Positions 25,022 to 61,418 are shown, numbered from the stretch's first letter. The stretch: 64,000 nucleotides of DNA from an uncultured Chloroflexia bacterium (GCA_963739395.1 CAVUAE010000001.1:710056-774055); one strand, 5' to 3'. Made by a program: numbers and translations. The notes: generated by a model not told the origin, from the sequence alone.

Positions 25022-25042
25022 TATAAAATAGACTTTAAACAT

Positions 25043-25156
25043 TTTTCTCCTTTCCTATTCCGGGAAGCATTGCCGTTTCCAGCCATGCCGTCGAGATTTC
25101 CATCTACCGGCTATTCACCATAGATAAGTCTTTAGGTGAAATAGCTCCGGAGAAAC
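25043..25156 (-). promoter_or_regulatory. Putative molybdenum-cofactor (Moco) riboswitch aptamer
   Basis: Minus-strand RNA has closing stem UUUCUCC...GGAGAAA, CUCCGGAGC near the 5' end, CCCGGAAUAGGAAAGGAG near the 3' end and internal hairpins. Lies upstream of modABC. Confidence 0.5.
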
Positions 25157-25287
25157 TGGCTTATATTAGCATAATAGATATATTGCTGTCAATATTGCGC
25201 CTAACCAGCATAAAAATATCCTCCTATCTAGCACTTTTAGCTTAGTAAGTATATAATTATTGATAATAATACGTGCTCTAATATAAT

Positions 25288-51942: not shown

Positions 51943-52237
51943 AAAAAACCTCTCAACCCCGTTAGGGGCGAGAGGTTTAACCTTTCGCGGTGCCACCCTA
52001 ATTGATTGCCCGGGAAAAGAAATACTGGCAATCATCTCTTTTGAGGTACGGCCTCAATATTTCTGAAGCGATACCCTGGGTTTCATTAACGGGACCCTTT
52101 CCGTCAAATCCTACTCGGTTTATACCCTTTCGGTTTGCAGCTCCCGAACCCATTCAACCTCTGCGCTAGCACCGGCTCACACCTAACCCGGTTCTCTGAG
52201 CTCCGCTGGAAGCCTACTAGTCTCGTTCCAAGCCTTT
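51943..52237 (-). promoter_or_regulatory. T-box riboswitch leader, Trp-specific, with intrinsic terminator
   Basis: Minus-strand GGGUGGCACCGCG (plus-strand 51986-51998), then the terminator AACCUCUCGCCCCUAACGGGGUUGAGAGGUU plus U6. AGAGA box at 52193-52197. GAAUGGG specifier context with UGG at 52150-52152. Confidence 0.75.
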
Positions 52238-52243
52238 AGAAAA

Positions 52244-52387: not shown

Positions 52388-52415
52388 TGGTGGAGATGGG
52401 GGAGGGTCGAACTCC
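52388..52415 (-). repeat. ssrA 3'-end copy 4
   Basis: tggtggagatgggggagggtcgaactcc. 26 of 27 core positions match. Confidence 0.7.
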
Positions 52416-52461
52416 ACCTGAAATATTGTCTATAAAGAGATTTTAAACAAAATTTATTAAG

Positions 52462-54372
52462 CTAAGGTCTTAGTTTCTCTAGCAAATCATTAAGCCCAAT
52501 GGTGGCTAAACCAATAACCTTATCTCCGCCGCCATAATAGAAGTATAGTGTGTTTTCAATTACTACAGCTCCGCAGGAAAAAACCACATTATTAACGATG
52601 CCGTTTTTCTCGTAGTGCGTCTCCGGTTCCATGATCGTATAATACGTACGCCCGATGACACTTAAGGGGTCGTTTAAATCTAGAAGAGCTGCTTTGATAT
52701 CATAGATTGATTGCTTAACAGTAACACCGTGACAGAGTAAAAGCCAGCCGTAAGGGGTTTCGATGGGGGGACCGGCAATGCCGATTTTCTTATGAACACG
52801 CGGCATGGCTGTCGGTTCCATTAAAACCTGCCCGTAAATCCATCGATTACCATCAAAGTCAAGGCTATCAACAAAGTCAATCCAGATACTGCCGCCGAGA
52901 CGGTGCAAAATAACGTATTTACCCTTTATTTTCTTGGGAAATATAGCCGCATCTTTATCATCCATACCAGGTGGAGAGATTAGCACCGGTTCAGCCCAAT
53001 TCCAATGCTTGTCTAAAAAGTCTGCCAGCTTAATATGGGTAAGAGCTACACGTGGGAGGTCTTTCCCGTTATAAGCGGTATAGCACATGTACAATTTATC
53101 ATCGATTCGGGTAATTCGAGGGTCTTCACAACCCGAATTACCTCCGGGCACATATTTTGCCTCAAAATCTTTGCGGGGGACATATATTGGCTCGGGAAGC
53201 CTCTCGGTAATTCGCATACCATCAGCACTGGAAGCGTAGCCAAGGACAGATGTATTATCATTGGACATGGCTCGATATACTAAATGGACTCTCCCGTTTT
53301 CATAAATAGCCGCGGTATTAAAGGTTGCTTGAGCTTCCCATGTGTTTTGGGGATTAGGTGTTATGATAGGATTATCAAAAAATCTCTTTAGTTTGACGGC
53401 GTTAACTTCAATGCCTAATATTTCACGTAGCAATGACTCGAATTCGATGGTAGCTAAAGCACAGGTAGTATCAGCTGCCCCGTAATACATATGTAATTCT
53501 TTACCTTTAACATAAGCGCCTGTTGGAAAAACTATATTCGGCACCCGTCCGTATCTTTCGTATTGCTCTCTGGGTATCAGCAAAGGTTTTTTCGTGCGGC
53601 CAAGCACCTCGGTTGGATTATTAAAATCCAATAATGCCGCTTCAACGCCGAATGTCGCCGGCGGTGCAAAATAATTCTGGATATGACTATAAATCAACAG
53701 CCATCCATATTTAGTTTTTAACGGCGGCGCGCCAACTTCTATCTGGTCATGAGGCGAACGCTCCAAAGGAATGGCATGAGAATTCAGGGCTTCATACCAT
53801 TGCTGCCAGTATTTCTCCGACCAGATTTGAGCCTCATCATCGAAATAGGCTACGGCGATTTTAACCGGCGGATTGTCCGTATTAGCCGCTAGCACGGCGG
53901 CAATTTTACCATTGATTCTTTCCGGGAAGAGCGCCATGGCTTTAGCATTGAAAGTAGTAACCGGATATTTGGCATCAATTTGGTTAAAATCTCTAGTGAT
54001 AGCCAAACCAACTTTAATGCCGTCTGCATGGAAAGGGTATTTGGATAATGCCGTGTAAAAAATATAATACTTGCCATCAAATTTAGTTACCCTCGGGTCC
54101 TCGCAGCCGAATTGCTCCCAGTCATACTCCGGCCTGATAAGCTGATGACGTTGCTTAAAATGAACGCCGTCTTTGCTTACCGCACAGCCGACGGAAGAGT
54201 TGATTTTTTTCCCCATCCCATCAGCCAGTGATAAAGATTCAGCTCTATATAAGAGAACAACTTTTCCTTTATATATAGCAGCACAACCGTTAAAAGTAGC
54301 CTCTCCCTCCCAGTTATTATCAGGATTAGGCAACAGGATTGGATTTTCTTCCGAACGTTTAAAGATAATCAT
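52462..54372 (-). CDS. Tandem double GH130-family glycoside phosphorylase/hydrolase (two complete domains fused)
   Basis: Two repeats, each with NPIL/ITPNP...WE...FN, the GCEDPR motif (FGCEDPRV, SGCEDPRI) and YYGGAD/YYGGGD. Confidence 0.75.
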   Translation of the reverse strand: MIIFKRSEENPILLPNPDNNWEGEATFNGCAAIYKGKVVLLYRAESLSLADGMGKKINSSVGCAVSKDGVHFKQRHQLIRPEYDWEQFGCEDPRVTKFDGKYYIFYTALSKYPFHADGIKVGLAITRDFNQIDAKYPVTTFNAKAMALFPERINGKIAAVLAANTDNPPVKIAVAYFDDEAQIWSEKYWQQWYEALNSHAIPLERSPHDQIEVGAPPLKTKYGWLLIYSHIQNYFAPPATFGVEAALLDFNNPTEVLGRTKKPLLIPREQYERYGRVPNIVFPTGAYVKGKELHMYYGAADTTCALATIEFESLLREILGIEVNAVKLKRFFDNPIITPNPQNTWEAQATFNTAAIYENGRVHLVYRAMSNDNTSVLGYASSADGMRITERLPEPIYVPRKDFEAKYVPGGNSGCEDPRITRIDDKLYMCYTAYNGKDLPRVALTHIKLADFLDKHWNWAEPVLISPPGMDDKDAAIFPKKIKGKYVILHRLGGSIWIDFVDSLDFDGNRWIYGQVLMEPTAMPRVHKKIGIAGPPIETPYGWLLLCHGVTVKQSIYDIKAALLDLNDPLSVIGRTYYTIMEPETHYEKNGIVNNVVFSCGAVVIENTLYFYYGGGDKVIGLATIGLNDLLEKLRP

Positions 54373-55661
54373 CTGGGTCCTTTCGTCTTCTTTCGTATAG
54401 CTTTTTTCTTAGGCTTAGTTGTTTTTACGAAAGTAATCATCTTCGCCCCACACTTCAGGCAAACTCCTTTGATAATGCGTCGTTTATTATTCAGAGTTAT
54501 AGGATGCTGGTCTTTCATCACTCTCATTTTCTTACATTTCAAACAATACCCTTTGACAAGTTCTATCTCCTCTTCGACTTCATCCGGAGGTTCAGCGTTT
54601 ATGCTTTCACCCGCCGGTTCTCTATGATTGGCGACAAGCTGTTCAATAAAGCCGTTTAGCTTTACCGATGCCACACAAACCACCGTGTCAGCTCCGCCAT
54701 AATAAACAAACAGGCGTTCGTCAATGATTGCCGCTCCACAAGGGTAAATCACCCCTCTTTTCCAGCCCTCATTTTCATACCAGACATCTGGTGCCAGGAT
54801 GGGATTGCTGCTTCGGGCTAAAACTTTAGTTGGGTCTTTTAAATCAAGTAGCATTGCTCCTATTTTATAGTGATATTCTCCGCCATTATGGACAGCCTGG
54901 TAGATAAGCAGCCAGCCGTCTTTCGTTTTTAAAGGGGGCGGACCACAACCGACCTTAAGATTATCCCAATCCGAGCTTGTGGCTCTAACCGGTATTTCAT
55001 ATTGTCCGGTCAGCCACCTTGTACTGCCGTCAAAATCAAGGTCATCGACAAAATCAATCAGTATATTAGGAAAAACGCGATGAAAAATAACATATTTGCC
55101 ATTGATTTTTTCCGGTAGGAGACAGGCATTTTTATCCACAATATGAGGAGGCGAAATAAGGACGGGTTTCTTCCAGTTCCACTTTCTGCTAAGAAAATCC
55201 TTCAGGGAGATAGAACTTAATGCTATCCTCGGTTGAGTATGCCCATCATAAGCAACATAGATGATGTAAACTGTATTATTGATTCTAGTGAGGCGCGGGT
55301 CTTCACAGCCGCCCATCTCCCCACCACCGGAAACGTAAACGCCCGGCATTCCTGGTTTATACTGATAAGCCGGGTTGACTCCTTCAAAAGGCTCTCTGGG
55401 CACATACACTGGATAAGTCAGGCGCTCATGTATATGTAATCCATCAAGACTGGAAGCATAGCCTAATACCGAGACGTCCGTTTCGCCAATTGCACGGTAA
55501 AGAATGTGTATTTTGCCGCTTTCGTAAAGAGCAGCGGGGTTAAAAACAGCCTTGGTCTCCCATGAATGGCTCGAGTTTGGTTTCAATATCGGGTTATCGG
55601 CAAACCTTTCCAGTACCAGCCGGATGTTCGGTATTTTTTGGAGAGTTTTTCTGCCTCCCAC
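54369..55661 (-). CDS. GH130-family protein with C-terminal CxxC-CxxC zinc-ribbon and lysine-rich tail (GTG start)
   Basis: GGCEDPRLTRI and YYGGADT motifs. C-terminus CLKCKK...CLKCGAKMITFVKTTKPKKKAIRKKTKGPR. Confidence 0.75.
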   Translation of the reverse strand: MGGRKTLQKIPNIRLVLERFADNPILKPNSSHSWETKAVFNPAALYESGKIHILYRAIGETDVSVLGYASSLDGLHIHERLTYPVYVPREPFEGVNPAYQYKPGMPGVYVSGGGEMGGCEDPRLTRINNTVYIIYVAYDGHTQPRIALSSISLKDFLSRKWNWKKPVLISPPHIVDKNACLLPEKINGKYVIFHRVFPNILIDFVDDLDFDGSTRWLTGQYEIPVRATSSDWDNLKVGCGPPPLKTKDGWLLIYQAVHNGGEYHYKIGAMLLDLKDPTKVLARSSNPILAPDVWYENEGWKRGVIYPCGAAIIDERLFVYYGGADTVVCVASVKLNGFIEQLVANHREPAGESINAEPPDEVEEEIELVKGYCLKCKKMRVMKDQHPITLNNKRRIIKGVCLKCGAKMITFVKTTKPKKKAIRKKTKGPR

Positions 55662-55999
55662 TTGATGTCCCCTTTAGTAGCTGAAAATATAATTTATAGT
55701 AATTACTTTGAGTATATAGTATGCCTGTAGGCATACAATGGTGCTACCACCGATTCATTCTAGGGATATTTCTTTAATTTATTCCGTAGCTGACTCAACA
55801 CAAATGTAATTTTCATCGCAAATGTTAATAACTAACTAGAAATACTTAACACAATATGATAGGTATTTCTATTTATAATCTTAGAACTCAAATAGTATCA
55901 AAATTATTAAAATTTGACTAAATAAATCACAAAATTACCACATTTTAAAAATTCGGATTTTGATTGTCTTAGATATCGTCCCCGCAAAGGATTACGGCA

Positions 56000-56027
56000 T
56001 GGTGGAGACAGGGGAGGGTTGAACTCT
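56000..56027 (-). repeat. ssrA 3'-end copy 3
   Basis: tggtggagacaggggagggttgaactct. 25 of 27 core positions match. Confidence 0.7.
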
Positions 56028-56067
56028 ACATGAAAAAAGATATCGATAATTGGCTGACAGGGAAATA

Positions 56068-58737
56068 CTACAATTTCACCATCATATATCCCGCCCTGGT
56101 TAAAATGGTCGGAATTCCTCTTACCAAGATACGGTCTTTTTCCTTTGCTTCTTCGGTAAGTTTTTCCCATAGGACAAGGTCCTGGTGGAGTTTTTTCTCT
56201 TTATCCGTTTTTTCAGCATATTGCCAGCCGTCATTGAATTTCTGCTGCATCCATCGTTCATGTTCTGCTACAGCCAAAATTTCAACTTCATTATTAGAGA
56301 AATTACCGGGAGTTTCATTGCCACGCATAGGAACGATAACATATCCCACCTTAGTGAGTTTGCGTTGGATATCCCGTGCATTGCTGCGGTTTTGTTCTTT
56401 CTCATTGTCAGGTAATTCTTGATAAGGCTTTAGTGAACTGTGCTCTTTCCTGTCTTCATGGGTGACCAGACCATAAGTCCAACCCTTTTTACGCATGTCT
56501 TGAACAAACAGCTCATGAACAGTTTCCGCCAGCTTTTCTACAAGAGTGCTGGTAAGTTCCATTCGGTTCATGATAGATGAAAAATCACGACTGTCGACAT
56601 GCATATTTAACTGGGTCTCATATGGTAAGCAGGAGCGTTCAAAGGAAGATTTGCCGGCAAGCTGGCTCATCGAAACGATTGCCTCCATTGACCTGGCGCC
56701 ATGTTTATATTCGTTAGTAAGTAAAAAGGCGAGCAATAATCCCTGGTCAATATTGGCGATTTTCTTATTCCCTTCATTAATGAAAAGACGAGGAGCAGAA
56801 CGTTCGAGAATAGAACGAAGAAGAATCGCTCGACGGATGATATAATAAGGATCCTTAGTTTGTCCCTGAATGTTTTTATCCACTTGCCGGTTTGGTCCGA
56901 GGATATTGAGAAATCCTTTAAGCCTACTGACAAAATCAGGCAATTTGACCAGGATTTGTTCTTTATCGTCAAGGTTTGCACCAAAAGACTCCATGTTATA
57001 GCTAGTTCCTCCGGCAAAGATAAAAATACTACGCCCGATAGGATGAACTATCTGCCCTTCTTGAAATTCTCCATCTTGCATTGGAGCGAGGAAATACCGT
57101 AACCAGCCTAATGGTTGATTCTGCAATTTGGTATCAAATTCATCCCAGAACACCAGCGGGATTTTTCCGATTAGGACTTTATCCCTTACCTGATGAAAAG
57201 CGTCATATAAATCATTAGGTCCGGCCAGTTGCGAAAGATTGAATGTCAGAGTCTCAATTTCTCCGGGCAACACTGATTTGGCAATCTCTTTAACAGTAAA
57301 AGACTTGCCCGACCCTGGCGGGCCAAAAACAGCAATAGACAATGGCGTCTTCTGGTAACGCTGGTGATACTCATGAATAAAACCGCTAATGCTACGCAAG
57401 CCTTCTATTTCTTTTCGGTCTACGGTCTTTAAGTTGCCGAAACTGCCCATCGGGATGTCAGGTATCGCCTGTTCCAGACCTTCAACAACAATTTTTTCGG
57501 CGACACCCTCAAGTAAATTGGGATATTTATCCTCTAGGATAGCCCAGAAACGATTGTCCTGATTATCACCAACGCTCTCGATGGAAGTTGTCAGTCCTTG
57601 TAAAGGCATTTTGATAAAAGTCGAGGCAATTGACTTGTCATTTTCTGCTAACGCACTGGCTATCTTCGATATCGGGAAGGTGAGGTCTATCTGTGATTCA
57701 TTACTATTAACATGACCATATCCTTCTATATGAAGAACGCGAGTGGCATGAATACCAGACTGGATGCCGCGAAAGACATTTGGTTTTGTGGTATTCAACA
57801 TGAGTTCATGAGTAATACCTGCAGTAAGGCATGTATTGTAGCCGACCATATAGCCTTTGTGATTTTGTCCCCATTCACCCTCCATCGCCTTCGGGTCAAA
57901 AAATAACACCGCTTGCGGAACCGATTTCGGGTTGTTCACAACTAATATCGCGCCTGCCGTTCCGAAGGAAACAATAACATGTCCGCATTGCGCCAGACTA
58001 TTTACTTTAGGATTATATAGTAACTCCCAAACCATATCCTGGGCAGTTCTTTCCCAAGACAACCGTCGGCTAATTTGAACTTGACTGCTTCTTAAGTCGT
58101 CCGCCGTCATCACCACAATAAGCTGTTCCGAATGGTGACTAATTAAATATTCCCATAATCTACCCTGCATCACTGGTTTAGCCATTTTAAGAACAATCCA
58201 TGGTTTGGCTTCATTATTCGATAGTACCTGTGGCCATAACTCCGGATTATCACGGAATCCCTGATTGTCATCATTTAGTACAATAATATCTGGCAAAGCA
58301 CGTTCGTCAGTGACTTTTTCAATTTTTTCCTTCATGCTGGATTCTTTATGCAACGAGTTTACCCCTAAAAACTCGCGCACACGCCAGACGCTACCAAGCT
58401 CAGGTTTACGTTCGTCCAATTTATGTGGTGCCCAGATTGAATAGGAATGATGGAAGTTTGTATCAACAGGAGATATCCACCCACGTGGATATTCGACATG
58501 GTGGACTGTAAAACTCCCTTGTCCTGTTTTATGGAGGTTACTGGCGATGGTCTCAATGAGTTCAGCCAATAAAAATGCACCACCGCGCTGACAACAGGCT
58601 GATGTAATTTCATCCGCCGTCCAAGTCTTTGCCACAATATCTTCCTGGAACACGCGGGCTATGTTCCAATCAATAGTCACATCCCCAGTTACGACAACAG
58701 TTTTATTGTCTTGTGTTTTGTTCATCGAGAACCCCAC
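56068..58737 (-). CDS. 889-aa multidomain protein: unassigned N-terminal domain (about 340 aa, weakly PfkB/ribokinase-like), AAA+ ATPase, two C-terminal RyR domains
   Basis: Walker A FGPPGSGKSF and Walker B LVFWDEFD. Two RyR-like repeats: LAETVHELFVQDMRKKGWTYG...LKPYQELPDNEKEQNR...GYVIV and LAVAEHERWMQQKFNDGWQYA...LVLWEKLTEEAKEKDR...GYMMV. Confidence 0.6.
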   Translation of the reverse strand: MGFSMNKTQDNKTVVVTGDVTIDWNIARVFQEDIVAKTWTADEITSACCQRGGAFLLAELIETIASNLHKTGQGSFTVHHVEYPRGWISPVDTNFHHSYSIWAPHKLDERKPELGSVWRVREFLGVNSLHKESSMKEKIEKVTDERALPDIIVLNDDNQGFRDNPELWPQVLSNNEAKPWIVLKMAKPVMQGRLWEYLISHHSEQLIVVMTADDLRSSQVQISRRLSWERTAQDMVWELLYNPKVNSLAQCGHVIVSFGTAGAILVVNNPKSVPQAVLFFDPKAMEGEWGQNHKGYMVGYNTCLTAGITHELMLNTTKPNVFRGIQSGIHATRVLHIEGYGHVNSNESQIDLTFPISKIASALAENDKSIASTFIKMPLQGLTTSIESVGDNQDNRFWAILEDKYPNLLEGVAEKIVVEGLEQAIPDIPMGSFGNLKTVDRKEIEGLRSISGFIHEYHQRYQKTPLSIAVFGPPGSGKSFTVKEIAKSVLPGEIETLTFNLSQLAGPNDLYDAFHQVRDKVLIGKIPLVFWDEFDTKLQNQPLGWLRYFLAPMQDGEFQEGQIVHPIGRSIFIFAGGTSYNMESFGANLDDKEQILVKLPDFVSRLKGFLNILGPNRQVDKNIQGQTKDPYYIIRRAILLRSILERSAPRLFINEGNKKIANIDQGLLLAFLLTNEYKHGARSMEAIVSMSQLAGKSSFERSCLPYETQLNMHVDSRDFSSIMNRMELTSTLVEKLAETVHELFVQDMRKKGWTYGLVTHEDRKEHSSLKPYQELPDNEKEQNRSNARDIQRKLTKVGYVIVPMRGNETPGNFSNNEVEILAVAEHERWMQQKFNDGWQYAEKTDKEKKLHQDLVLWEKLTEEAKEKDRILVRGIPTILTRAGYMMVKL

Positions 58738-58797
58738 CCAATACTCTACGATTAATTGACTTTTTTCAATTTAATTAGCAAGACTCTTGATTCCGAT

Positions 58798-58826
58798 ATT
58801 ATGCTATATGAGCGACTACTAGTCAA
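58798..58826 (-). promoter_or_regulatory. Sigma70-like promoter for the 889-aa gene
   Basis: Minus strand TTGACT-17 nt-CATAAT. Lies between the gene start and ssrA copy 2. Confidence 0.45.
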
Positions 58827-58900
58827 CATTAATAGCATATATGGTGAAAGGAAAAAGAAAAGGAAATGTCAATCAACTATTAGTACTAAAATTTGAAGCT

Positions 58901-58927
58901 TAGTGGAGACGGGGGAGGGTTGAACTC
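58901..58927 (-). repeat. ssrA 3'-end copy 2
   Basis: tagtggagacgggggagggttgaactc. 25 of 27 core positions match. Confidence 0.7.
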
Positions 58928-59079
58928 TCCCTGAAACACGATATATCGTCAATTGGCTAATTAGGTTCGTTCTTGTATATGTGACTTAAAAAATGGTATC
59001 ACTATTGGCGTCACACCAACTTTGACAAGCTGGAATTAGCCTTTTTACTTCTAAAACAATGTTTTAGCAACTGCCCCTA

Positions 59080-59108
59080 TTGACAATTTTTTTTTACCGT
59101 ATTATAAT
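59080..59108 (+). promoter_or_regulatory. Perfect-consensus sigma70 promoter
   Basis: TTGACA (59080-59085), 17 nt, TATAAT (59103-59108). About 150 nt upstream of the 59261 ATG. Confidence 0.55.
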
Positions 59109-59260
59109 TCTGTAAATATTGAAGTGACGCTTGATTATCATATTGATTTTAATATTGTGTGAACATTTATAATTAGTAGAAATAACATAGTTACCAGGCT
59201 AACAGACACATAAATGCGTAGTAAATTATACTGCGCTGTATTTACTAAAGGAGGCAAGCT

Positions 59261-60793
59261 ATGAAAGCAGTACTCGCGCTCGCTATTGTTATTATATTGT
59301 TGGTACCGATGGCTACCACGTGGGGCTGCTCGGGAGATGGCGGTCAAATCCAGGATAAAACTGTCATATCTGCAGATGCCGATACTGATAATTATTTAGT
59401 CTGCACGCCGGAAGATACATACGACGAAGGCGCAATAACCTGTTACGTGGACAGCGTGAACGGGAACGACGAGAACGACGGTCTGTCAGAGGCATCTCCA
59501 GTAAAATCCCAATCGGCCATTGATCCTAGATGCACCGTGGTACGCTTCAAACGCGGCAGTGTCTTCAACGAAAAATTGGCCGTTCGTACTTTCTTTAACA
59601 AACTCGGCTTCGGCTACAACGTAAAAGTGTACACCAACTACGGTCCCGAAAGTGATCCCCTGCCCCATTTCAAAGTACCGAGCGAACCTGGGAGAGGCCC
59701 TGTGGTCCTTACGTTTTCTCCGCTAACCATCGATGGTCTGCATTTCTCGGGAGCCAGGGGCGACAACACCATGGTACATGATTTTGACAACGACGGAGAT
59801 GGGATTACCAAAGGTATCGTCGGAGGTATCGGCGCCTTTCTAGGAGCCGCCACTACATTTATCAACAATGAAATCGACAAATGCGATATCGGCATCATGC
59901 TGGGCGGCCCAGGTTCTGTCGTACGCGGCAACTATGTGCACGACCTCATCATGGGCATCGACGAATCTCCCGGCGTGGATCCGAATCTGGTAGGCGGCGC
60001 TGAAGGTATTTTCGTTAACGCTTCCAACTGTGAGGTGTCGTACAATGCATTTATCAACTGTTCGGGTTATGCCGAGTGGGTGGGTGCAAACGGCAAGTAC
60101 GACGGCGGTGCCACCGAAGTTTCCATAGCATCGGGCGGCACTATCGAAAATGTCCACATCCATCACAACTACGCCTACAACTGTTGCGGCTTTTTTGAAG
60201 TCGCCACGTACTTTGGTAATCAGGGCAAAGGCGTATTTAAGGATTCGTCATTCCATAACAACGTAATCGTCGACAGCGGTTGGATGGGACTGCTTCAGGT
60301 AAACAATACTGACCTTGAAAATATTCGCTTCTACAACAACACCCTCATCCAGCACAAGGGTTCCATTAACGAAGGATATCTTTGGATAATCTTCACCGCT
60401 GTATCATCGGGCATGCAAGGCGGCAGGCTTGTTCCCGGAACTGTGCACCTGACCAACAACCTGTTTGTTCTGGACGGTGTCACCCCCAAGGGCCGATTGA
60501 TTGATCCGGCGTTTGATGCCAATAACAATATCGTTACCAACTACTGGGGTCCTGAAGATACTAAATATGTTGATCTCGGCTTTGCCGACATCACAGGAAC
60601 CTCTGCATCATCTTTTGATCTGGTGAACGCCGACAGCCCTGCAGTGGACGCCGGCGCCGATATAGGCTATAACACACTGGACTACTTCAATCGTAAGCGT
60701 CCCAATGGCACCGCACCGGACATCGGCGCCATGGAATTCGGCTCCGCCCAGACCAAATGCATCCCGCGATTTCGAGCTGAGAGGGATCATTAG
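59261..60793 (+). CDS. Secreted lipoprotein with right-handed parallel beta-helix (pectate-lyase-fold) repeats
   Basis: Signal peptide with a lipobox-like TTWGC. Periodic repeats GNYVHD, VSYNAFINC, IHHNYAYNC, FHNNVIVDS, FYNNTLIQH and LTNNLFVLD. Confidence 0.65.
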   Translation: MKAVLALAIVIILLVPMATTWGCSGDGGQIQDKTVISADADTDNYLVCTPEDTYDEGAITCYVDSVNGNDENDGLSEASPVKSQSAIDPRCTVVRFKRGSVFNEKLAVRTFFNKLGFGYNVKVYTNYGPESDPLPHFKVPSEPGRGPVVLTFSPLTIDGLHFSGARGDNTMVHDFDNDGDGITKGIVGGIGAFLGAATTFINNEIDKCDIGIMLGGPGSVVRGNYVHDLIMGIDESPGVDPNLVGGAEGIFVNASNCEVSYNAFINCSGYAEWVGANGKYDGGATEVSIASGGTIENVHIHHNYAYNCCGFFEVATYFGNQGKGVFKDSSFHNNVIVDSGWMGLLQVNNTDLENIRFYNNTLIQHKGSINEGYLWIIFTAVSSGMQGGRLVPGTVHLTNNLFVLDGVTPKGRLIDPAFDANNNIVTNYWGPEDTKYVDLGFADITGTSASSFDLVNADSPAVDAGADIGYNTLDYFNRKRPNGTAPDIGAMEFGSAQTKCIPRFRAERDH

Positions 60794-61071
60794 AGATGTA
60801 TTTCCCCTCCCTGGACATATTTGATCCGCGGCGAAGCCATTGTTTATCTTTGTTGATATTTCTAATGGTGAATTGAAGCTCCCTGCAGCCCCCGCTCTCC
60901 GAGCGGGGATCTCCACAAAGTTCCGACAAGTCACCGACGGGCCAAAGCCGCCATTCTATAACCTATTTGAAGCGCTCAAGCACATGCCTGATAATAAGGT
61001 TGTAATATTCAGACCGGGCACAAAACAAAAAGAAACAGGCCCCGGAATTACCCGAGAGCCTGATTATGCTA

Positions 61072-61418
61072 TGGTGGAGACGGGGGAGGGTCGAACTCCC
61101 CGTCCAAAAGAAGCTGTCCAGGATATGCTACAAGCTTAGTCAGCTCTTTAATCTTACCGGGCTTACCTCAACTGACCGAGTTAAGCCCAGCCAGCCGATA
61201 AATCTTTCACCGCTTTTATCGACATTAAAGCGGCGGCACCCCAACTTTTCGGCACCCAATCCTGACCCGTCGGGGTGAGGTCAGGTTGGATGGCAACCTA
61301 TGTTAGGCTGCAACCATTACTGGTTCTGCGTTTGTTTTTTGCCAGCGGTTTTAGGAGGGACCGGCACCTCCGCCTGCAGTCCTGTAACGCACCTCCTCTG
61401 TCGAAACCACGCGTCCCC
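61072..61418 (-). ncRNA. ssrA: tmRNA (transfer-messenger RNA)
   Basis: The minus strand starts GGGGACGCGUGGUUUCGAC and ends GGGAGUUCGACCCUCCCCCGUCUCCACCA. The acceptor stem pairs with a G3-U wobble and the T-arm is intact. An internal reading frame ends ...NAEPVMVAA-UAA. Immediately downstream of smpB. Confidence 0.85.

Follow-up and report, generated by a model that had tools for sequence, protein, structure and literature searches.

A TIR-linked protein family with PfkB-like, AAA+, and tandem RyR domains, and an orphan copy in a bacterial ssrA island

Why would a small island module in a bacterial chromosome carry a single large gene, and what could its product do there? The question arises in a 64-kb window (the whole stretch of DNA analyzed, from an uncultured Chloroflexia bacterium; GCA_963739395.1, CAVUAE010000001.1:710056-774055), where one gene encodes an 885-amino acid (aa) protein that joins an N-terminal domain of PfkB-like fold, a central AAA+ ATPase, and two C-terminal repeats of the ryanodine receptor (RyR) domain family. 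An earlier note written from the DNA without database searches, called here the sequence-only reading, described the protein as a candidate stand-alone conflict or defense protein and suggested structure comparison, a search for known defense systems, and a survey of homologue neighborhoods as checks. TIR-made ADP-ribose (ADPR) signals serve bacterial, plant, and animal immunity, and to our knowledge only a handful of receptor domains for TIR-made signals, SLOG, Macro, and a few others, have been described. Our best reading is a Thoeris-like TIR signaling system with a RyR-sensor ATPase. The evidence tips somewhat toward the protein belonging to a TIR/ADPR-nucleotide signaling conflict system in which the RyR pair is the nucleotide-binding module. 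The narrower proposal that the protein is a signal-activated effector is tentative and falls short of even chances.

The C-terminal repeats are the part of the protein that can be compared most directly with characterized proteins. Pfam finds PF02026 in two stretches (E 3e-28; 98.3 bits against a cutoff of 27.4), confirming the two RyR repeats named in the sequence-only reading, and a profile search of the PDB matches RyR Repeat12 (R12) at E 1e-24. R12 structures also head the Foldseek results for a full-length model (predicted local distance difference test, pLDDT, 71; predicted template modeling score, pTM, 0.51), with 6uhi the best (E 8e-9) and template modeling (TM) scores of up to 0.65 on the target. 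Among the structures matched are two of human RyR3 R12, one with bound ATP (6uhh) and one with ADP and dantrolene (9l9b). Animal R12 thus resembles the window pair in giving its best sequence and structure matches, in being a tandem-repeat pseudodimer, and in being known from adenine nucleotide-bound structures. It differs in setting: R12 belongs to a Ca2+ channel of 5,000 residues, where it is peripheral and regulatory, whereas the RyR pair of the window protein forms the C-terminal module of an ATPase that is soluble and lacks a channel part.

A ligand class for such repeats is suggested by work on a phage protein. Mycobacteriophage DyoEdafos gp78 (RyDEP, a PF02026 protein) is a glycosidase that opens 2'cADPR and 3'cADPR (cADPR, cyclic ADP-ribose), the Thoeris TIR signals (Lopez Rivera et al. 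2026 preprint, PMC13232231). The catalytic dyad of RyDEP consists of H75 and D117, W78 stacks on the adenine, and H100 contacts the phosphates; these residues are common to animal R12 domains (PMC13232231). Further phage homologues do not cleave the signals but bind them with nanomolar affinity, and RyDEP works together with enzymes that rebuild nicotinamide adenine dinucleotide (NAD) (PMC13232231); its gene sits between two NAD-rebuilding enzyme genes. The earlier suggestion that the RyR repeats sense a ligand therefore now has experimental backing at the level of the domain family (PMC13232231). The gp78 sequence was taken from MN234187.1, its PF02026 match was confirmed, and it was aligned with both repeats of the window protein. 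In repeat 2, H822, W825, H847, and D864 fall at the exact RyDEP spacing (+3, +25, +42), and all four residues are kept as equivalents of H75, W78, H100, and D117. Repeat 1 reads HFHN and matches the set in part, with F replacing the aromatic W and N replacing the acidic D. Among 68 family members with two repeats, repeat 2 is HWHD in 40 and retains H and D in 57, and repeat 1 is HFHN in 37. The pair is therefore consistently asymmetric, with one complete and one degenerate pocket. RyDEP itself is a 138-aa single-repeat homodimer that is encoded by a phage and acts against defense, whereas the window protein carries two fused, asymmetric repeats at the end of an 885-aa cellular ATPase whose family is linked to TIR genes.

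That link comes from the neighborhoods of homologues. ORFs (open reading frames) were called in 80 loci with our own ORF finder, and counts were taken over 77 loci using strict clustering and domain hidden Markov models (HMMs). A canonical TIR gene lies in the flanks of 30 of the 77 loci and is adjacent to the family gene in 18; 30 TIR genes lie no more than two positions away, and 23 of them share its orientation, at gaps of 27-205 nucleotides (nt). TIR proteins make up 13.3% of neighbors at ±1, 8.4% at ±2, 3.2% at ±3-4, and 1.5% at ≥5, so the enrichment decays with distance (p = 7.5e-8; all p values from a Fisher test comparing genes within two positions with those at ≥5). A protein of about 196 aa behaves similarly (16.1% at ±1, 2.3% at ±2, and 0% both at ±3-4 and at ≥5; p = 2.7e-11), as do other RyR proteins (7.0%, 4.6%, 0.9%, and 0.5% over the same distances; p = 2e-5). 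The roughly 196-aa protein occurs in 20 loci, directly downstream (+1) in 18 of them, with gaps of -35 to +39 nt. Its Pfam matches are weak (E 0.003-0.09) and fall on YpsA, YAcAr, DprA, and nucleoside deoxyribosyltransferase, which we take to be SLOG-type or related Rossmann-like folds; a profile of it gave no significant match among PDB sequences. The same domain also forms the N terminus of SLATT-like proteins, and the SLOG label used here rests on the weak Pfam matches together with this fusion. The fusion would reproduce the SLOG-SLATT pairing reportedly found in nucleotide-signaling conflict systems.

Further partners recur around the family: TrkA_N-RyR proteins of about 600 aa in 16 loci, DUF4062-NACHT STAND NTPases in 13, proteins of about 580 aa with weak SLATT matches in 7, and WD40 proteins. 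The neighboring TIR proteins are themselves fused to TPR, WD40, PPC, DctP, HEAT, or STAND modules. Altogether, a TIR, a TIR-like DUF4062, or the 196-aa domain is found in 54 of 77 loci; where at least 4 kb is available on both sides, the count is 30 of 42. All five of the closest genome relatives tested have adjacent TIR proteins. Of the three relatives nearest in the database, P0003 (66% identity) lies in a SLATT-target-TIR-fn3 operon, P0002 is preceded by a TrkA_N-RyR gene and a gene of unknown kind, and P0007 is solitary. PADLOC, run on 129 immediate neighbors, assigned TIR models to at least 14, in addition to PDC candidates, and one neighbor (locus L032) matches the ThsB1 model at 6.9e-51. 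The neighborhood survey therefore supports the conflict association proposed from the sequence, through TIR, SLOG-like, SLATT, STAND, and TrkA_N-RyR neighbors, and, at the level of the family, does not support its "stand-alone" part, since most loci hold TIR, TIR-like, or SLOG-like partners.

Thoeris is the closest known system. Its types I-XI, as set out in a survey preprint, combine a ThsB TIR protein that produces a signal with an effector that binds it, such as the SIR2-SLOG protein ThsA (Yirmiya et al. 2025). [quoted passage not shown] It differs in that a PfkB-like, AAA+, and double RyR protein is not among the effectors named in the accessible part of the survey, and in that no TIR gene lies near the window copy within the 64 kb. 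The accessible text and supplements of the survey hold no relevant mention of RyR, AAA, ATPase, or ribokinase, and Kaur et al. 2020, on NTP-dependent conflict systems, does not mention RyR, ribokinase, or TrkA. A literature search combining SLOG, SLATT, RyR, and TrkA returned nothing relevant, and NCBIfam assigned nothing specific to the window protein. The architecture had not been recognized as a named system from the sequence, and it is likewise absent from PADLOC-DB 2.0 and from the accessible part of the TIR/Thoeris survey; neither Kaur et al. 2020 nor the other literature searched describes it as part of a defense system.

The family is large and varied. A protein search gave 2,334 relatives among the candidates scored (clusters at 90% identity), the best 120 of which span the full length, share 50-66% identity, and, where they carry a name, are called "RyR domain-containing protein", "ATPase", or "hypothetical". 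The N-terminal domain alone yields 1,670 clusters at 50% identity and is always N-terminal. Contigs sampled at one genome per species hold at least 376 relatives at 37-64% identity, from Chloroflexota, Actinomycetota, Acidobacteriota, Planctomycetota, Chlorobi, Ignavibacteriota, Cloacimonadota, Clostridia, Proteobacteria, and two archaeal metagenome-assembled genomes (MAGs), a distribution that is patchy and transfer-prone. Length variants of about 730-770 aa lack the RyR repeats, and those of about 1,090-1,190 aa carry extra C-terminal domains. In two proteins the roughly 196-aa SLOG-like domain is fused to the C terminus (L036, 1115 aa, residues 932-1094; L051, 1072 aa, residues 889-1072), which probably explains the length class of about 1,090-1,100 aa.

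One variant bears on which end of the protein is the output. In a Methanobacteriaceae MAG, a canonical family gene is followed by a 660-aa TIR-AAA-RyR protein (L074:12715-14694 (+)), the AAA-RyR part of which can be aligned with residues 400-885 of the window protein. Two further full-length TIR-AAA-RyR clusters (P0392 and P0419) accompany the archaeal protein's own cluster (P0391), and two shorter proteins that combine TIR and RyR also exist (P0449 and P0460). Because either a TIR or a PfkB-like domain can occupy the N-terminal slot of this chassis, we infer that the N-terminal domain is the output and the RyR pair the input. A RyR-domain-annotated protein of the fungus Hortaea werneckii (P0462, 869 aa, a cluster of 35 sequences) matches the archaeal TIR-AAA-RyR query at 31% identity over 71% of that query, so the chassis of AAA and RyR is present in a eukaryote as well.

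The N-terminal domain was identified by structure. An AlphaFold2 (AF2) model of residues 1-385, built from a 42-sequence alignment, reached a pLDDT of 86 and a pTM of 0.88, and a Foldseek search of the PDB with it gave 172 matches at E ≤ 1e-3 (best 3e-10). The best 50 of the 172 are all ribokinase/PfkB-family or related sugar or nucleoside kinases; those listed include phosphofructokinase-2, LacC, HldA, ribokinase, ketohexokinase, and nucleoside kinases, with TM scores on the target of 0.45-0.57 and identities of 10-13%. The sequence itself gives no PfkB match in Pfam at E ≤ 1, and the 42-sequence profile finds no kinase among PDB sequences at E ≤ 10. PfkB kinases carry a C-terminal DTxGAGD motif that provides the catalytic Asp and the anion hole. 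Where this motif would fall, the family has a conserved LFFDPxxxEGxW and no GAG. The conserved positions of the domain are D15, T17, D19, G48-G49, D277, E282, and W285; the GG dipeptide and the N-terminal Asp residues presumably sit at the ribose-binding positions of ribokinases. The model and alignment are consistent with a domain that has kept the ribokinase fold and probably a ribose-type pocket, with the canonical anion hole not kept, and kinase activity is doubtful. Compared with the PF00294 kinases, then, the likeness lies in the overall fold, the GG dipeptide, and the N-terminal Asp residues, and the difference in the lack of HMM-level similarity and the replacement of DTxGAGD by DPxxxEGxW. 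The faint PfkB/ribokinase features noted from the sequence proved right at the level of the fold, and the DTxGAGD motif, which had not been obvious then, is indeed absent.

Between these ends lies the ATPase. The PF00004 match is marginal (25.6 bits against a cutoff of 21.2), and Foldseek with the full-length model places the middle of the protein on FtsH (2ce7, E 5e-6) and its N terminus on PfkB kinases. The motifs reported earlier (GPPGSGKS, LVFWDEFD, QRGGAFLLAE, and VSFGTAGAILV) were re-read in the translation, and the AAA+ core proposed from its Walker A and B motifs stands, with both motifs intact. K474, D528, E529, R601, and R678 are invariant among 32 homologues. The ATPase is a divergent classical AAA module: it shares with FtsH-like proteins the Walker A sequence GPPGSGKS, a Walker B of the form hhhhDEhD, a sensor-1-like stretch, and arginines, and differs from them in its low score and in having no protease or other classical partner domain. 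The position that we take to be the aromatic pore loop of classical AAA modules (e.g. YVG) reads AGP, which makes an unfoldase or threading role unlikely and, on sequence grounds, a switch role more likely. Membership of the STAND/NLR class was considered and rejected, because the ATPase matches classical AAA and not NACHT or NB-ARC; STAND proteins are neighbors of the family genes and distinct from the family protein.

Our analysis allows a mechanism to be proposed. The architecture, the kept pocket residues, the gene linkages, and the variable content of the island are observed, whereas the ligand, the direction in which the signal travels, the part played by each domain, and the defense function are proposals. 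The family would be a three-part switch protein, widespread and horizontally moving, that works with TIR-type nucleotide immune signaling. The C-terminal RyR pair would act as one module with two pockets for a nucleotide derived from ADP-ribose, most likely a cADPR isomer made by the neighboring TIR protein. Repeat 2 would supply the full binding or catalytic set, with the degenerate repeat 1 as a binding-only or structural partner. Ligand binding would be passed to the central AAA+ ATPase as an oligomerization or activation switch, and this switch would control the N-terminal ribokinase-fold domain. That domain is likely the effector, because the same slot carries TIR in sister proteins, and its target would be a small molecule that contains ribose. 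Complete systems would co-transcribe the gene with one or more of a TIR-plus-sensor-repeat, SLOG-like, SLOG-SLATT, or TrkA_N-RyR protein, the last two being putative membrane or ion-channel-like proteins. The intact copy in the window would have been brought in by itself, in a small module that lacks an integrase, holds no other cargo, and belongs to a tandem ssrA array. In its most specific form, the proposal makes the PfkB-like, AAA+, and double RyR architecture a new class of Thoeris-type effector and the RyR/R12 pair the cellular receptor for TIR-made cADPR isomers, which we offer as a possibility that has less than even probability.

Several points weigh against this interpretation. Translated in any frame, the window contains no TIR, DUF4062, SLOG-like, SLATT-like, TrkA_N, or second RyR protein, the window being 64 kb of a 1.47-Mb contig. 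Nine of the 42 well-flanked homologue loci have no partner at all, and one close relative (P0007, 64% identity) is solitary. The ORF finder was crude, the HMMs were home-made, and the loci are mostly MAG contigs. The PfkB-like domain has neither the GAGD anion hole nor a sequence-level kinase match and may not be an enzyme, and in the full-length model (pLDDT 71 overall) the AAA part is predicted with only moderate confidence. What is known of RyDEP stems from a preprint about small phage proteins (PMC13232231), and a kept dyad does not distinguish binding from cleavage, since sponge-type homologues show high conservation too. The suggested search for known systems, with PADLOC-DB 2.0, gave the window protein no system model and a single 23-residue P-loop match to mad8 (E 8e-4), and the literature searched holds no experiment or anti-phage phenotype for any family member. 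Finally, where a SLOG-SLATT protein is present, it could be the real effector and the window-family protein its regulator.

This last arrangement is part of a wider alternative in which the family protein clears the signal, as the host's own off-switch or threshold setter for TIR signaling, comparable to the ring nucleases of type III CRISPR. Repeat 2 would cleave cADPR isomers to ADPR, the ribokinase-like domain would process the product, and the SLOG-SLATT or TrkA_N-RyR protein would be the real effector. The retention of the RyDEP glycosidase dyad in repeat 2 of most two-repeat members agrees with such a role, as do the cooperation of RyDEP with the NAD-rebuilding enzymes that flank its gene, the suitability of a ribose-acting kinase fold for product processing, and the separate membrane-effector candidates that adjoin the gene in several loci. 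However, four loci (L002, L005, L006, and L007) appear to contain a TIR protein and the family protein only, which leaves no effector, and it would be unusual for a simple hydrolase to be joined to a large AAA+ switch. Most RyDEP homologues with the conserved residues did not cleave (PMC13232231), and the family lacks the kinase motif GAGD. We consider signal clearing unlikely. A non-immune role, as an adenine-nucleotide or NAD/ADPR-linked regulator in housekeeping or stress, would fit the ATP and ADP seen in the R12 structures 6uhh and 9l9b, the TrkA_N partners, which suggest ion or NAD sensing, the loci with no conflict genes (e.g. Chlorobiaceae L028, L034, L035, L042, and L069), and the partnerless copy in the window. 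The same copy might also be a decaying passenger with no host function. The patchy distribution over bacterial phyla and two archaeal MAGs argues against housekeeping, however, as do the variability of the site in close relatives and the significant linkage to TIR, STAND, and SLATT genes, and a decaying passenger would not be expected to remain full length with every invariant family residue kept. We regard this pair of explanations as quite unlikely.

The island setting raises the further alternative of counter-defense cargo that sequesters or destroys the recipient's TIR signals and thereby shields the mobile element or a helper phage. Phage RyR-domain proteins are proven anti-Thoeris factors (PMC13232231), and in the window the gene has no TIR partner and makes up the entire cargo of a module that looks mobile. 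On chromosomes, however, family genes are tightly linked to TIR genes in the same orientation, as is typical of a partner and not of an antagonist. A tblastn search of 50,697 phage records with the RyR pair returned small RyR-domain proteins only, none with AAA or PfkB parts, and Foldseek against BFVD found no viral protein that shares the architecture; the known sponges and hydrolases are small, unlike an 885-aa ATPase. Counter-defense is accordingly the explanation that we find least credible, and it is highly improbable. Within the Thoeris-like interpretation that we prefer, the window copy is better described as an intact orphan component than as a self-sufficient defense protein. The copy might answer to a TIR whose gene lies at another place in the genome, might respond to a different adenine nucleotide, or might be idle cargo.

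The coordinates of the gene, its domains, and the surrounding island are collected in Table 1. A mechanical ORF call gives 889 aa, from a GTG at 58737 (56068..58737 (-)), and this was the length first reported. The single large ORF is intact as described, and its length is corrected to 885 aa, because the public database twin (P0001) and every aligned homologue begin at the ATG at 58725 (MNKTQ...) and a G-rich, Shine-Dalgarno (SD)-like stretch, GGGTGGGG, lies directly 5' of that ATG. The gene is full length and keeps all family-invariant residues, and on its sequence the copy is not visibly decaying. The TTGACT-17-CATAAT pattern that had been read as the gene's own promoter is present and plausibly placed. 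Such matches are not rare in this AT-rich stretch and do not exceed the regional background (13 found against 8.6 ± 2.5 expected), so the promoter is plausible and not demonstrated.

Table 1. Features of the gene and its island, in window coordinates
Feature	Position	Strand	Remarks
PfkB-like / AAA+ / 2 x RyR gene	56068..58725	(-)	885 aa; stop codon 56068-56070; P0001 100% identical
N-terminal domain, ribokinase/PfkB-like fold	57601..58725	(-)	residues 1-375; AF2 model and Foldseek
AAA+ ATPase module	56581..57360	(-)	residues ~456-715; Pfam PF00004
Walker A GPPGSGKS	57301-57324	(-)	
Walker B LVFWDEFD	57133-57156	(-)	
RyR (R12) repeat 1	56320..56562	(-)	residues ~722-802; pocket H737, F740, H762, N779
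RyR (R12) repeat 2	56071..56310	(-)	residues ~806-885; H822, W825, H847, D864
Sigma-70-like promoter pattern TTGACT-17-CATAAT	58798..58826	(-)	pattern match; ~70 nt upstream of ATG
tmRNA gene ssrA, integration site anchoring the tandem modules	61072..61418	(-)	
ssrA 3'-end repeat, border of module A and the gene's module	58901..58928	(+)	
ssrA 3'-end repeat, border of the gene's module and the GH130 module	56000..56027	(+)	
ssrA 3'-end repeat, end of island array; core genome beyond	52388..52415	(+)	

The island is anchored at the transfer-messenger RNA (tmRNA) gene ssrA. The 3'-terminal 28 nt of this gene recur at the three repeats of Table 1, making four copies against 0 expected by chance, and the PfkB-AAA-RyR gene is the sole substantial ORF within 56027-58901. 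The repeats and ORF content thus agree with the earlier description of a gene that fills the interval between ssrA copies as the sole cargo of its module. Three very short modules (2.1-3.6 kb) result: A holds a 510-aa ORF, B the PfkB-AAA-RyR gene, and C two GH130 genes. Among ORFs of at least 120 aa in 52416-61071 there is no recombinase, no DsiB/DsiA integration module, and no rdhA cargo; besides the cargo genes just named, only a 130-aa ORF antisense to the PfkB-AAA-RyR gene was called, and it was taken as spurious. SmpB relatives place the host among uncultured Dehalococcoidales. In three of them (L083, L084, and L086; SmpB 90-94% identical), glmS-smpB-ssrA is kept and the genes downstream are unrelated, with no RyR ATPase downstream of ssrA and no further ssrA repeat within 10 kb. 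This variability marks the site downstream of ssrA as a general hot spot in the lineage. In one relative the site is followed by FAD (flavin adenine dinucleotide) oxidoreductases and an ABC transporter, and in another by NIF3, ROK, amylase, and glycyl-radical enzyme genes.

Dehalococcoides ssrA islands also vary in content and include integrase-less modules that are possibly mobilized in cis ("cis-mobilizable") or fixed (McMurdie et al. 2011, PMC3146451). The window array resembles them in that ssrA and direct repeats of the ssrA 3' end form its borders, in having a Dehalococcoidales host, and in differing in content among close relatives with a syntenic flank. It differs in its very short modules and in the lack of DsiB/DsiA and rdhA, and its modules are most like the integrase-less "cis-mobilizable" or fixed islands of that study (PMC3146451). 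The two inner repeats share about 30 further bases past the core (58929-58960 and 56028-56058; CTGAAA..ATATCG..AATTGGCT), an extension that is absent at ssrA itself and at the outer repeat at 52388. From this sequence, the two adjacent modules may derive from related elements.

Some other features of these loci were recorded. In the module next to ssrA, the 510-aa ORF (59261-60793 (+)), its sole cargo, has a lipoprotein-like N terminus (..TTWGCSGDGG) and matches no Pfam family at E ≤ 1e-3. In the GH130 module (52462-55661 (-)), the first gene has a duplicated GH130 region and the second a DUF5679 tail; GH130 enzymes are of the mannoside-phosphorylase type. A 4.7-kb Logan contig from run ERR10755944 has an identical target-GH130-DUF5679 arrangement. 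ARAGORN gives the tmRNA (61072-61418 (-)) a tag peptide AVKDLSAGWA, which lacks the usual hydrophobic ...LAA-type ending and may reflect a mis-called resume codon or an unusual tag. A T-box leader (51961-52239 (-)) stands upstream of a 498-aa gene, immediately beyond the outermost ssrA repeat, and a molybdenum-cofactor riboswitch lies farther away at 25031-25164 (-). Close to the solitary relative P0007 are three ORFs of about 76-80 aa and a HEPN_Swt1-domain gene (L089:9608-10408 (+)), a further conflict-type neighbor that the other loci did not show.

With this analysis, a very large uncharacterized family, present in bacteria, archaeal MAGs, and a fungus, is tied to TIR genes. If the link holds, it would add a new receptor-effector class to Thoeris-like immunity and give RyR-domain nucleotide sensing a cellular instead of a viral context, and it would supply a tractable model for asking whether molecules of the cADPR type have a direct action on the R12 domain of RyRs. 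If the most specific form of the proposal is true, the R12 domain of animal RyRs would descend from a prokaryotic immune-signal sensor, the long-debated link between R12 and cADPR would become testable on a simple soluble bacterial protein, and the ribokinase-fold domain would act on a ribose-containing metabolite as an immune output of a new type. For the host genome, it would mean that short integrase-less ssrA modules in a Dehalococcoidales bacterium other than Dehalococcoides shuttle single components of conflict systems.

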